Position numbers and translations under genes: made by a program. This document shows positions 473-20,642 of a stretch of DNA of 34,932 bases, piece by piece (the stretch's first letter is position 1; every line of letters begins with the position of its first letter). Below the pieces are notes generated by a model. It searched no databases and had not been told where the DNA came from. It was given only the letters and a program-made list of their open reading frames with translations. Origin of the DNA: an uncultured Opitutales bacterium (GTDB taxonomy: Bacteria; Verrucomicrobiota; Verrucomicrobiia; Opitutales; CAZEFS01); contig CAZEFS010000001.1 in assembly GCA_964511545.1 (NCBI GenBank), positions 1 to 34,932 of the forward strand, written 5' to 3'.

Positions 473-572
473 TTTGCTTGGCCTGCCGGGCGTCTACACC
501 GAGCCTTCAGGCGTCGCTCTACGAGCGACGTGTCAGGCATAGTTCGCAGAACGACACCTGAACCCAGGCAGC
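473..572 (+). repeat. GC-rich structured repeat, module Q (compact copy)
   Basis: Three blocks are shared with 18593-18748: TGCCGGGCGTCTACAC (14/16), AGCCTTCAGGCGTCGCTCT (19/19) and AGCGACGTGTCAGGC (14/15). Perfect 8-bp hairpin CGTCGCTC-TAC-GAGCGACG at 512-530. TTCAGG (506-511) pairs with CCTGAA (557-562). Imperfect terminal inverted repeat GCCTGCCGGG / CCCAGGCAGC. Confidence 0.65.
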
Positions 573-16524: not shown

Positions 16525-17477
16525 TCATAGCACCTTACCCAGAGGAATATCGCTTGAGTCCGATGAATGATGAGCAGGATCATCAAACGGCATTGCTGTA
16601 TAGCCGTTTTTGAGATAAAATCTTAAGCTGCCCTGCCTCGATTCTACATGGATACTTTTGATGCCTGATGCTTTCAACCACTGCCTGATTAAGGCCAAAA
16701 ATTGACTACCCAAGCTTTGATTACGCTGATTCTCATCCACTACTATGATACGAATCGCCGCCCTTTGCTCAGACCAGAACTGAATATGGGCGTAAGCTAT
16801 AATCTCTGTACCTTGATATAAAACCAGATGGACATGCGCTTCATGATGAAATGTCCAGGTATAGGGGTCTTCTAGGCATTGAGGCTCAAAAAAATACTTA
16901 TCTCGAAAATGCTTCGCAGCAGCCCACTCAGTAGCGTCACTGCACTTCAGCATCCGAACTCTATTAAACCCCGCTTCTCTCAAAACGCTTCGAATAAAAT
17001 CGCCCTTGCGGAGCGTGTAATTTGTGAAAAGTGAATTTTCTTTATTCAATGATGATTCGTCTTGGATCAACTCCTTCTTAAGCTGGGCATAATCATCTCG
17101 TCTGTTCGGATGATTTCGTAGGTAATCCCTAAACATTAGGTTTAATTCAATTTCCGGATGAAATGCTTCGTATACATGAAGATTCAGGTCGATCTCTCCT
17201 CGCTTACTGAAACCATAGTGCAAGGGGATGTTGTATTCGCCTTTATGCTTCAGACCAATTGTCTCTAGTTGCTGAATTGCAAAAAGGGGTTTTGCACCAC
17301 AGCGATCATATCAATCTTAGGCTTAGCAGGAAGCCCTGGCACTGCAGTGGAGCCAATGTGGTGTATCTCTAAAAGGTTACTCCCTAAGGCTTGCTTGATA
17401 TGTGCTGCCTCTGCCTCAAACATATAAGGCCAGCTTGGGTTGTAGGGAAGAATCTCAATGTTTTTTGTTTTACTCAT
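16525..17477 (-). pseudogene. GrpB (UPF0157 nucleotidyltransferase-fold) :: GNAT acetyltransferase fusion, interrupted by a 1-nt frameshift
   Basis: The 70-aa ORF (17265-17477) carries the GrpB N-terminus (HIGSTAVPGLPAKPKIDMIAVV). The 232-aa ORF continues the GrpB C-terminus in another frame (upstream extension reads KPLFAIQQLETIGLKHKGEYNIPL) and ends in a GNAT domain (IIVVDENQRNQSLGSQF...YLKNGY). The frames switch within the run AAAACCCCTTTTT (17281-17293). Confidence 0.75.
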
Positions 17478-18234
17478 GTGATTTTAACTCTAATACAATA
17501 AACGTTATTAATTCACGAATATCAAAACAGCGATGAGGATGATGCTTGAAGTCTGAACGCTTAAGGCAATCCAGCAAAGAGCATAGATTCAATAAATGGA
17601 TAGTGCTAGACCAAGTATCAGGTAAGTCAATACCGCTTTTTTTTAAAGCATTGATGAAAGAAGTTTGAAATACAGGTGGCATTTTATGAGCGTATCTAAG
17701 CATGCTAGCAATATCCCAAAGATAAGACCCTGAAAAAGCAAATTCCCAGTCTAAAATTGCACTCACTTTCCAAACGTCTTTCACCTTATTTACCAAAATG
17801 TTTGCTGGATCAAAATCCCCATGAACAAGATGCTGTCCTTCTAAATAAAAACCTTGAGACGATCTAGATCATAGATAGCTGTGTTGTTCGAGGATAGTAC
17901 TAATTGCTAAAATGCTATCTGCAGTCAGCACAGATAATACCGTCTCATGGCTTAAACAATTCTTGGCACATTTTAAAACATCAGTACATGGGTAAGGCAT
18001 CACTCTTAATGCTTTATCCAAAAAACCTGTTTCTAAAAATGAATGCGATGCAATGCTTGATAGAGTCATGCCTACTTCATGCATGATTGCATTAAGGTCA
18101 TAAGGAACGTCTCCTAGCAAAAGATCCCGAAGGGGCATACCTGGCATAAACTCTGTAATGGCAAAGTGATACCCTGCAAGTTCACCGATGTAATACGTTA
18201 ACGGTACAGGTACGGTTTTTTTTATGAATGTTGC
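17470..18234 (-). pseudogene. Aminoglycoside/choline-kinase-type phosphotransferase (APH family), C-terminal two thirds, with an in-frame TGA
   Basis: Motifs HGDFDPANILV and ILDWEFAFSG. The ORFs 17470-17796 and 17869-18147 are in the same frame, separated by a TGA at 17869-17871. The reading frame continues upstream to the IS boundary at 18234. Confidence 0.85.
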
Positions 18235-18592
18235 TTAAACTACCTGACAAAAAAAAGGGGTAAGTTAAAAGCTTGATGAACAGTGGGAAAGCTGGCATCA
18301 AGCTTTTATGAAAAAAAAACACACTTACCCGATGGGTAGGCCATATTATATCGCTAAATAAGTCAAGAGCAAAGTGCTTAATGAGAATGATGACGGGGAT
18401 GATTACGCTGAGAACGGTCAATTTGAACCGATTAAGCCAGGCTTTTCGGCCGACGGTTCAAGAGGCCTCACACGAGCGCACCATGAGTCGTTTTCTGAAA
18501 GAAATACAGATAAATCCACTGGAAATCCTTCGGATAGTTAGAGCTATGCTCGCTGCGAAAAAAATAGAATACTTATGCAAATAGGTATCGTT

Positions 18593-18748
18593 TTTGTTGG
18601 CTTGTCGGGCGTCTCCACTACGCCATCTCCACTGCGCTGAAGCCTTCAGGCGTCGCTCTTCCCCCTACGCTCCTTGAGCTACGGGAGACAGGTAGCTTTT
18701 AAAGCGACGTGTCGGGCGAAGCTCAACGAGCGAAGCCCGAAGCCTGAA
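18593..18748 (+). repeat. GC-rich module Q copy, with a module-P-like segment nested in its hairpin loop, inserted in the transposase gene
   Basis: Shares the three blocks listed for 473-572. Here the two halves of the CGTCGCT/AGCGACG stem are separated by about 44 nt (18660-18702) containing CCCCTACGC. Flanking inverted repeat GGCTTGTCGGGC (18599-18610) / GCCCGAAGCC (18735-18744). Confidence 0.7.
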
Positions 18749-19292
18749 TAGAACAAACTGGAAAAGGGGAAAAAAGCACTTAAATTTCTTATTTATAGCT
18801 TTGAAAACGCAGCATTGGACCATCCCCATATGGGTCTTGCCTATCTGTGAGCAAAAACAAGGCAATCATAGCTTAGCTCAGCTAGAATCAGCTCTGGAGG
18901 CCGTTTTGAAGATAATTCCTGCTAAAAAAATAGATTATTTTTTAGGAGATACTGAATTTGGAGCACTGAGCCGAATTAAGCTTTTTCAAGAGAAGGGAAT
19001 TCCCTATATAGTCCGCCTAAAAGAGGAGTGGAATTGGGCTTATCAAGGCGAAGAGCGTCGTTATATTCATGAATGGTTTCGCGGTTTACCCGTAGGGAAA
19101 AGCCGCACTTTAGTGTTACAATTGGGAGAAAAAGCTGAAGTGACTACTTCGGTAACCGCTAAACGCCTCAAAGATGACAGTCTAATTATTGTGGCACATA
19201 ATTCATCCAAAAGAAATCCTATAGACATTTATCGATCCAGATGGAGTATCGAAACTCTGTTTCGTTCCCTTAAAACTAACAAATTTAATAGA

Positions 19293-19433
19293 TCCCTTGC
19301 GAAAGTAGGTATTTTGACTCCTGGGCAGGAAAAAATAGATGAAGAACCGCAGTGTACAGAAGTACATGAGGATTCTGAATGTATTTTTGACGAACCCAGG
19401 GAGCAAAAGACTTCTTTTCCCAAGGGTTCTAGT
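19293..19433. repeat. Small palindromic (MITE-like) in-frame insertion in the transposase C-terminal region
   Basis: 32-nt imperfect inverted repeats (24/32) at 19294-19325 and 19395-19426. ATAGA occurs on both flanks (19288-19292 and 19434-19438). The encoded acidic, low-complexity stretch of about 48 aa lies between KTNKFN and IESTGVTDP, where IS4-type transposases are normally contiguous. Confidence 0.5.
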
Positions 19434-19696
19434 ATAGAATCTACAGGAGTTACAGACCCTTTGAAACTGCGAAATTTAATCCATATTATCATTTTATGCT
19501 TCCTTTTTGTTCTCGATCAAGCCCAATATCTTTTTTCAAAGTTTCCCATTCCTTTTATCATTAAGGCACATGGCTATCCCGCTAAAAGTTATTGGAGATC
19601 CTTCTTTGACCGAATCCAATCCATCATTTTTGACCAATTTATCCCCTTCTTTTCCGCTTCCTATGCGTCCTAATTTTTTTTTGTCAGGTAGTTTAA

Positions 19697-19937
19697 ATGT
19701 TGCTAGTTTTTGTTCTTGATAAGCAGCAGCTTTACTGCGCAAATAAAGACGCAAAATCAGTGGTTGGTTTACATTTTCCAACTGAATTTTATAATTAAGA
19801 TTAGCGCACCCGCCAGCAATCAATTCAAATGCAGTAAGTTTTTTATCAGGATAAGCAAGGTTTATCATTCTTTCTACCATGCTATCTGGCAGCTGATATG
19901 TAACGCTTACTTTTTCCCAAGAGTTTTTAAACATCAC
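19697..19937 (-). pseudogene. APH-family phosphotransferase, N-terminal third (severed from 17470-18234 by the IS)
   Basis: The N-terminus carries ELIAGGCANLNYKI and ILRLYLR. Removing the IS plus one ATGTTGC copy restores a continuous frame ...YQEQKLATFIKKTVPVPLTYYIGE... The start codon (GTG 19937 or ATG 19934) overlaps the upstream GNAT stop. Confidence 0.85.
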
Positions 19938-20353
19938 AAGCTCCGCTTTAAAAAGATACAGCTAGAACCGCGCGTATAGCCCGACCTTTCAAAATCACTT
20001 ACGTATCCCAATTTTTCATAGAATAATTTTGTGCTCTGAAAGCTCATTGTGGCAACGGTGGCCATTGAACATCCTGATTTACGTCCATAGTCATGAACTG
20101 CTTCCATTAATTGATGTCCTAAGCCATTCTTACGATGAGCTGGATGTACCCATAATTGATCGGTATAAAGGCTGCCGAAAATGATACTCCCGTTGCAGCC
20201 TGCAATGATCTGATTGTCCTTATCTCTTATAAAAAATGCAAAAGGATGAGCTTCACCGAATTCAGGCGTTTCTTGATTGATTTTTTGTGTTAGAAAATCA
20301 ATATCTCCACTGGCACCTGTAGATGCATATTGAAGATCTAATGAAGATTCCAT
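19934..20353 (-). CDS. GNAT-family N-acetyltransferase
   Basis: 139 aa. Acetyl-CoA-binding motif QLWVHPAHRKNGLGHQLMEAV and the terminal FYEKLGY. Confidence 0.85.
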   Translation of the reverse strand: MESSLDLQYASTGASGDIDFLTQKINQETPEFGEAHPFAFFIRDKDNQIIAGCNGSIIFGSLYTDQLWVHPAHRKNGLGHQLMEAVHDYGRKSGCSMATVATMSFQSTKLFYEKLGYVSDFERSGYTRGSSCIFLKRSL

Positions 20354-20642
20354 GCCCTATGTTCCATTTTTTTACTCCAGGGATAGCTACTAACTATAGA
20401 GCAAACAAAAGTCATAGCCAATGAAAAGCGGCAAAAACAAGAAATATGCAAAAGAATAACCTTAAAAAATATGTTATCCTTTAAATTTATATAGATTTTT
20501 ACAACTAAAAAAATAAAGCAGGCTGAACAAAGTACCCGTTAAAATTTGTAAGTCTACTGGTGCCCTACCAGAAGTTTATTTTTAATAGAGTAATAATTAC
20601 TGGCTCTACTGAAGCATTTATAACCTGAGCCGAGCGTTTTTC

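Follow-up and report, generated by a model that had tools for sequence, protein, structure and literature searches.

The 34,932-bp stretch of DNA analysed here (positions 1 to 34,932 of contig CAZEFS010000001.1, assembly GCA_964511545.1; hereafter the window) derives from an uncultured Opitutales bacterium and contains a minus-strand gene of the APH kinase family (PF01636) that is split by a 1462-bp insertion sequence (IS) of the IS4 type. The IS itself carries two miniature inverted-repeat transposable elements (MITEs): MITE1, which is truncated and has a GC-rich interior, the so-called module Q, with a further P-like segment in it, and the palindromic MITE2. The original prediction had recognized the split gene and the IS, and had taken the nesting as a relative timeline of mobile-element activity in this genome. 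The interruption was borne out by the profile matches and by a natural empty site in a close relative. The timeline was not supported, because MITE1 is present at the identical junction in IS copies that are 3–14% diverged, whereas the IS is absent from a relative at 2.5% distance. The most economical reading of these comparisons is that the order gene, IS, Q, P, from the outside to the inside, is not the order in time. With a probability of about 0.85, a non-autonomous IS4-family element that was already dead was moved in trans into the kinase gene.

The empty site is found on L029, a 1891-bp metagenome contig (NCBI GCA_020047555.1) that was retrieved via its 331-aa product P0263, a member of the protein cluster of the window's gene call. 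At 96.4% identity, L029 aligns to window positions 20029-19696 and 18235-16671. A single GCAACAT is common to both matches, and the sequence at this place (GAACAAAAACTAGCAACATTCATAAAAAAAACC) is exactly the product of an in silico excision. The heptamer ATGTTGC, which had been proposed as the target-site duplication, accordingly stands twice in the window and once in L029; owing to a terminal A/T ambiguity it can also be read as 8 bp. The inverted repeats (IRs) of the IS are as perfect as had been claimed, with 22 of 22 positions complementary (TTAAACTACCTGACAAAAAAAA). The kinase gene of L029 is an intact 331-aa open reading frame (ORF) under translation table 11. A comparison with the restored window gene shows 25 differences over 996 nt (97.5% identity), in 8 synonymous and 17 non-synonymous codons. 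Codon 199, the position of an in-frame stop noted earlier, is TGG in L029 and TGA in the window. Since L029 is uninterrupted, has a single heptamer and encodes Trp at codon 199, the window lineage underwent all three changes, insertion, 7-bp duplication and nonsense mutation, after the 2.5% split. The additional claim that decay continued after the disruption is not borne out, as the TGA could precede or follow the IS and the comparison with L029 does not fix the order of the two.

Excision of the IS together with one copy of the duplicate restores a frame of 999 nt (19937 to 17470, minus strand), as had been foreseen, and the only internal stop in it is the TGA at codon 199. The start ATG at 19934 agrees with L029/P0263. 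Against the PF01636 profile the restored protein scores 79.8 bits (E 3.5e-22, cut-off 23.2) over residues 37-263, and a search of the protein collection yielded hundreds of full-length homologues of 320–335 aa with 50–66% identity and 98–100% coverage. In an alignment with 24 homologues the restored protein is colinear and free of gaps at the junction residue 80, where KLATF on one side and IKKTVPVPL on the other compare with KLAALIKETVPVPL; colinearity across the junction had been named beforehand as the decisive point. The residues H215, D217 and N222 of the catalytic loop HGDxxxxN and the metal-binding D239 of the DWE motif are invariant in the alignment and retained in the restored protein; in all, 51 of 52 positions without variation among the homologues are preserved in it. 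The exception, F80, lies at the junction. An error of reconstruction was considered here and ruled out, since L029 has F80 too. Because all other invariant positions are kept and F80 is common to L029, the kinase gene was most likely inactivated recently. A second peculiarity is a stretch of six residues, SRSSQG, that follows the TGA (18 bp, window 17852-17869, minus strand, codons 200-205) and carries a 10-bp palindrome (GATCTAGATC). It is unique with respect to the 24 homologues, yet it is present in the intact L029 gene and has no repeat match; we therefore regard it as a trait of the lineage and rejected the idea of a lesion or MITE excision footprint.

The product of the gene is, on the strength of these matches, an APH/ChoK-fold kinase. 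The closest intact homologue of the first protein search, P0002 (approximately 65% identical), stood in for the restored window protein in a search of the NCBIfam models, and none of the cut-offs for resistance kinases or homoserine kinases was reached by it: P0002 scored 24 bits against APH_3p (cut-off 205) and 32–34 bits against the homoserine-kinase models (cut-offs 256–271). Homologues of the kinase include proteins of Orientia, Caedibacter and Chlamydiae metagenome-assembled genomes (MAGs), and they are often fused to GrpB or GNAT domains.

Pieces of a transposase are encoded in frame 3 of the IS. An intact 353-aa transposase with 86% identity, P0121, is encoded by an element of approximately 1160 bp with the same ends on L011, a 1370-bp contig from activated sludge. 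The PF01609 profile (DDE_Tnp_1) is matched by the window ORF with 37.6 bits and by P0121 with 46.3 bits (cut-off 23). The best NCBIfam model is NF033591, IS4_2 (E 1.8e-31), against which P0121 scores 109.5 bits, under the cut-off of 152 bits, and the more distant relative P0126 183.7 bits, over it. Moreover, a complete motif of the form Y-(2)-R-(3)-E-(6)-K, as defined in the survey of the IS4 family (PMC2266710), is found at 19230-19274 (YRSRWSIETLFRSLK). Judged from these matches, the element belongs to the IS4 family as an undescribed member. The described subgroup of this family that comes nearest in duplication length is ISPepr1, whose members have direct repeats of 7–8 bp, a length of 1500–1600 bp and the end consensus YT-AA-YTT---A (De Palmenaer, Siguier & Mahillon 2008; PMC2266710). 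The window IS resembles them in its duplication of 7–8 bp, its DDE_Tnp_1 transposase, the complete YREK motif and IRs of about 22 bp, and in part also in its ends, which start with TT.AA: the terminal sequence (TTAAACTACCTGA) agrees with the consensus at positions 1, 2, 4, 5, 7 and 13, but not at 8-9. In contrast, the intact relative on L011 measures only approximately 1160 bp and has a transposase of 353 aa. Because of the misfit in size and, in part, in the end consensus, we did not file the window IS under ISPepr1. No relatives of the IS were detected in 185,579 species genomes, and 40 genomes of the same order contained one match only (34% identity) and no intact transposase of this type. 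Such an intact transposase is likewise missing from the host assembly, which is 72.5% complete.

The lesions of the transposase were mapped against the intact relative on L011. In the original prediction the gene was broken by module Q and carried a palindromic insert in frame. Both insertions are present, and MITE2 indeed adds 48 codons without disturbing the frame; module Q turned out to be the interior of a truncated MITE, and it is accompanied by a deletion and by a separate frameshift near the N-terminus. At this frameshift, the window copy has a net gain of 1 nt relative to L011 in or just after an A-run. Beside MITE1, approximately 24–27 bp of the IS are lost and with them the codons for NKIGLIVD, among which is that of the first catalytic Asp, in the motif DRTNW. 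Given the frameshift, the 184-bp insert with the loss of the Asp codon, and the 144-bp insert, the window transposase is dead. The coordinates of all features are compiled in the following table.

Features of the interrupted kinase gene and of the elements nested in it (window coordinates)
Feature	Position	Strand	Remarks
Defective IS4-family insertion sequence, 1462 bp	18235..19696	+	22-bp IRs 18235-18256 and 19675-19696
MITE1, 3'-truncated MITE, 184 bp	18565..18748	+	left end TAGAATACTTATGCAAATAGGTATCG; GC-rich modular interior (module Q) 18593-18748; right end absent
Extra (P-like) segment, 43 bp	18660..18702	+	in the loop between CGTCGCTCT and AGCGACG of Q
Tandem duplication of ~14-15 bp within Q	18612..18637	+	TCTCCACTACGCCA / TCTCCACTGCGC; absent in the near-identical C70 copy
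MITE2, complete palindromic MITE, 144 bp	19289..19432	+	in frame (48 codons); five codons past the YREK lysine; site empty in L011 and L030
Transposase start codon and A-run	18308..18319	+	A-run 18311-18319; net +1 nt vs L011 in or just after the run, frame shifted
C-terminal three quarters of the transposase frame	18747..19673	+	starts NRTNW, DRTNW in relatives; GDTEF at 18945-59
APH-family (PF01636) 5' fragment	19697..19934	-	codons 1-79 and base 1 of codon 80; upstream duplication copy 19697-19703 included
APH-family 3' fragment	17470..18234	-	last two bases of codon 80 to stop; HGDFDPAN and DWE intact
Target-site duplication ATGTTGC	18228..18234	.	second copy 19697-19703; single in the L029 empty site
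In-frame TGA, codon 199 from the ATG	17869..17871	-	TGG (Trp) in L029

The relative age of these events can be approached through other copies of the IS. The left junction of MITE1, GAAAAAAA followed directly by TAGA, recurs in the IS copies on C70, C37 and C18 (CAGA in the last). Window, C70, C18 and C37 also have derived IS bases in common in the sequence flanking MITE1, which are not found in the MITE-free copies on L011 and L012. The truncated right junction, GAAGCCTGAA and then IS sequence, exists on C21 and on L030, a contig of a separate metagenome assembly, where a further 13 bp of the IS are missing. At the corresponding position L030 retains some of the left part of MITE1 in degraded form, and its second site is empty; for this reason MITE1 is, on this evidence, taken to be older than MITE2. 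The copies that bear MITE1 differ from the window copy by 3–14%, and the insertion into the kinase gene is younger than the 2.5% split from L029. The IS was, therefore, most likely defective already when it entered the gene. Its IRs (44 bp) and the duplication (14 bp), 58 bp in all, have not accumulated a single change, while the interior of the IS is approximately 8% away from its nearest intact relative.

In the history that we favor, the IS lineage would first have received a MITE at a TA in an Ile codon just upstream of the codon for the first catalytic Asp, and this MITE1 would later have lost its right end along with the codon for this Asp. Another member of the MITE family would have entered in frame past the YREK motif, and a frameshift would have arisen in the A-run near the start of the transposase gene. 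Mobilization in trans would still have been possible because the terminal repeats stayed perfect, so that a transposase supplied by an intact sister copy could have cut and pasted the element into the kinase gene; a sister of a suitable intact kind was seen in the sludge metagenome (L011). The insertion itself took place at codon 80 with duplication of 7 (or 8) bp, as the natural empty site shows.

Several observations weigh against this history. The IS copies are mosaics; C70, for example, matches the window copy at 97% identity in its left part and at 78% in its right part. The fragment on C21 that contains the junction is only 76–81% identical to the window copy, compared with 92–96% for the MITE-free L011, which is unlike a strict clock and implies unequal rates, recombination or repeated insertion at a hot spot. 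A strict-clock genealogy of the copies was dropped because of their mosaic nature. The window copy could be the source of the other MITE-bearing copies, or its MITE-bearing segment could have come by recombination after the landing. Furthermore, a donor transposase acting in trans is not among the genes of the incomplete MAG, and the 7-bp length of the duplication derives from the window insertion and from no other.

These objections lead to the strongest competing explanation, according to which the IS was still active when it reached the kinase gene, Q and the palindromic element inserted into it there, the P-like segment later entered Q, and the other copies with these inserts descend from the one in the window. 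The physical nesting is real, the left half of C70 shows 96.7% identity with the window copy and hardly differs from it near the MITE1 junction, as would befit a daughter copy, and in recombinant mosaics shared segments can spread at a later time. Against such an order, however, stands the occurrence of MITE1 with the same junction and the same derived flanks on C18 and C37, which are 12–14% diverged, and of its remnant on L030 at approximately 10–12% divergence, in view of the young age of the kinase insertion. The unchanged 58 bp of IRs and duplication also contrast with the diverged interior of the IS, and the composite of Q and the P-like segment is not confined to the window, as it is found in a MITE on C81 as well. 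We consider decay in place after an active insertion to be clearly unlikely.

Much less probable still is a reading of TGA as Trp (genetic code 4 or 25), which would leave the IS as the sole cause of inactivation. The public gene call P0001 (225 aa, window 17470-18147), which stems from the assembly with a 65-kb contig, does translate the codon as W, the codon of L029 specifies Trp, and the stop codons of the core genes in the window are TAA or TAG. Genome-wide, however, TGA terminates 106 of 720 long ORFs, and three genes of the window end in it. Readthrough of TGA adds only 12% to the summed length of ORFs of at least 200 aa, and even frames forced open contain 2587 TGG codons compared with 466 in-frame TGA. 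In the host genome, which uses the standard code, TGA serves as a normal stop, and the Trp in P0001 is an artefact of code choice; the table-11 call on the window's own contig yields just the last 104 aa of the gene. The least probable explanation, a misjoining of a repeated IS between unrelated gene fragments, could be entertained for a MAG of 201 contigs that is 72.5% complete and full of IS and MITE fragments, but the flanks are halves of one gene that meet at the 7-bp duplicate and are contiguous in L029, the middle of the IS (positions 640-790) is unique within the assembly, which leaves no second copy to cause a collapse, and the 65,297-bp contig of a second assembly encodes the same broken gene products, which argues against a misassembly.

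With regard to the ends of the IS, a typical duplication length was to be obtained from other copies. This comparison gave no clean target duplication at any of them, the copies in the genome being fragments, nested or variant-ended (TTACAC, TCATAC, CTACAC). A TTTTTTC repeat in L030 was rejected as an unreliable candidate, since it lies within a conserved flank common to many right ends. Right ends of IS variants (TCATAC and TTAAAC types) followed by the same flank, CTTTTTTCGCATTTTAGGCT(TGAC), were observed at C1:19, C70:958, C81:66, C102:1559 and C142:2818 and in L030 and L012; this flank is either a preferred repeated target or part of a longer composite unit. The copies on L012 and L013 sit within piles of IS ends: at L013:1-140 and L012:1-130 the IS stands behind stacks of two to four partial left or right ends, which suggests repeated insertion into or beside its own termini. 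In addition, C70:958-1751 and C18:3730-4162 are internally deleted derivatives of the IS whose breakpoints lie where the MITEs are inserted (a fusion of site 1 with site 2 or 3), suggesting recombination between MITEs inside one IS with removal of the transposase core.

Both inserts of the IS can be attributed to one MITE family. MITE1 starts at 18565 with TAGAATACTTATGC, and the sequence in front of Q, TAGAATACTTATGCAAATAGGTATCGTTTTTGTTGGCTTGTCGGGCG from the same position, is 81% identical to the MITE copy on C18; its truncation on the right falls after CCTGAA (18748). A scan of the whole assembly with the end motif CTTGCGAAAGTAGGTAT, allowing up to four mismatches, returned 123 places, several dozen of them convincing, and included 18572, with the same left flank as the IS copies on C18, C37 and C70. 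The consensus of the left end is TAGACCTCTTGCGGACCTACGTATTATCTTGGTTGGCCTGCCGGGCG and that of the right end ...GAAGCCAGG.AG.AAAAGAC..GCTTTCCCAAG.GGCCTA. In the alignment the ends are common across the family and the interior is modular and variable, consisting of a single hairpin (108 bp, C18), of up to several GC-rich modules or of AT-rich sequence like that of the 144-bp type. Because of the left end at 18565 and this pattern of shared ends and variable interiors, module Q is not a separate kind of element but, according to the alignment, the inner part of a truncated MITE, and this MITE and the 144-bp insert belong to one family. MITE2 is predicted to fold from end to end (z = -6.75), and 18565-18748 into hairpins (z = -3.2). 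The 144-bp type gave 19 alignments of at least 100 bp, 18 of them besides the window copy. MITE copies are flanked by ends that contain TA, and the sole site with a known empty state has one extra base at the junction. A transposase of the IS630 type was looked for in the assembly as partner of the MITEs, without a match.

The P-like segment claimed for Q is present in it. The simpler Q at window 473-572 lacks it, the MITE on C81 has it together with a further insert, and the C70 copy has a different sequence in its place. As C81 has the same composite, Q and the P-like segment were probably joined elsewhere rather than in the window, so that this innermost level of the predicted nesting stands as a structure but probably not as an event at this locus. 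The interior of Q is a shuffling mosaic.

The family targets sites of the type AAATTTAAT, of which the IS contains two, at window positions 19284-19290 and 19474-19482. The first is occupied in the window and on C40, the second, approximately 190 bp downstream, on C81 and C24. Copies of the 144-bp MITE were also observed in frame in a glycosyltransferase-2 (GT2) gene (C89:3318-3449) and a Fic-domain gene (C19:6930-7035), and beyond each insert the sequence matches Pfam. The inserts in the GT2, Fic and transposase genes use the same reading frame and encode the peptide ...GQEKINEEPECT..VHEDSE.IFDEPREQKT..., with the acidic consensus ...GQEKI[ND]EEP[EQ]CT..VHEDSE.[IV]FD.PREQKT.... Three of the six frames of the 144-bp element are open, so that insertion in frame is also expected by chance.

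Rickettsia palindromic elements (RPEs) are selfish DNA inserted in frame in protein-coding genes. The 144-bp palindrome is like them in its in-frame position in the transposase, GT2 and Fic genes and in the seemingly reduced genome of its host; it differs in the lack of a sequence relationship and in having three of six frames open. By this analogy, and rather doubtfully, the 144-bp palindrome might be an RPE-like coding palindrome that is preferentially retained in one frame, with host proteins tolerating an acidic peptide of approximately 45–48 aa, while its GC-rich sisters carry shuffling hairpin modules. The MITEs as a family also resemble the Correia/NEMIS elements of Neisseria and the RUP elements of Streptococcus pneumoniae: they are approximately 110–190 bp long, have terminal inverted repeats (TIRs), occur in dozens of TA-flanked copies, do not code for a transposase and insert into genes and mobile elements. 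Unlike those, they have ends of the form TAGAC.TCTTGCGGACCTACGTATT and a modular interior that swaps GC-rich hairpin units, a cognate transposase was not found, and the TA duplication is irregular by 1 bp. The interior of Q is, furthermore, reminiscent of REP/BIME repeats, being composed of short GC-rich stem-loops that are dispersed and occur in varying combinations, but the Q units travel inside a TIR-bounded MITE.

The host of the window is probably an uncultured, Opitutales-like member of the Verrucomicrobiota with a reduced genome. This placement is based on RpoA, which is nearest to Opitutaceae proteins (67–69% identity) and 84–90% identical to proteins from metagenomes. Among the GTDB reference genomes, relatives were found at the level of the order only and none in the same genus or family. 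The kinase gene is part of a cluster of GNAT, kinase and GrpB/GNAT genes directly downstream of rplQ, and an uninterrupted GNAT-APH pair occupies this position on L026, which is more distant (RpoA 88% identical). In the window, the GrpB-GNAT fusion gene (16525-17477, minus strand) has lost 1 bp near 17284, where CCCTT-TTTGCA compares with CCCTTGCTTGCG in L029, and consists of two ORFs as a result; the GrpB-GNAT frame of L029 is uninterrupted over at least 269 aa. The region behind rplQ differs between close relatives (window 19934-20640 compared with L024:7474-8224 and L026:6431-8175): one relative has a gene with a tRNA-binding domain there, another PAP2 and GyrI-like genes before the GNAT-kinase pair, and in the window GNAT follows directly.

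Taken by itself, the locus is an ordinary IS-disrupted pseudogene with nested repeats, and it should be annotated as the remains of a kinase gene and not as a resistance gene. The small accessory cluster around it (GNAT, kinase, GrpB-GNAT) is in decay in this host, and a close relative has it intact. Two undescribed repeat families are documented by it, an IS4-type element and a modular, TIR-bounded MITE, both of known kinds. The presence of the 144-bp palindrome in frame in the GT2 and Fic genes, which resembles the behavior of RPEs, is the one lead of wider interest. It is common to infer a time order from mobile elements lying within one another. Here the sister copies and the empty site make the inner elements older than the outer insertion, since defective elements with intact ends keep moving in trans, and dating the activity of repeats in reduced or symbiont-like genomes by nesting alone thus risks arriving at the wrong sequence of events.

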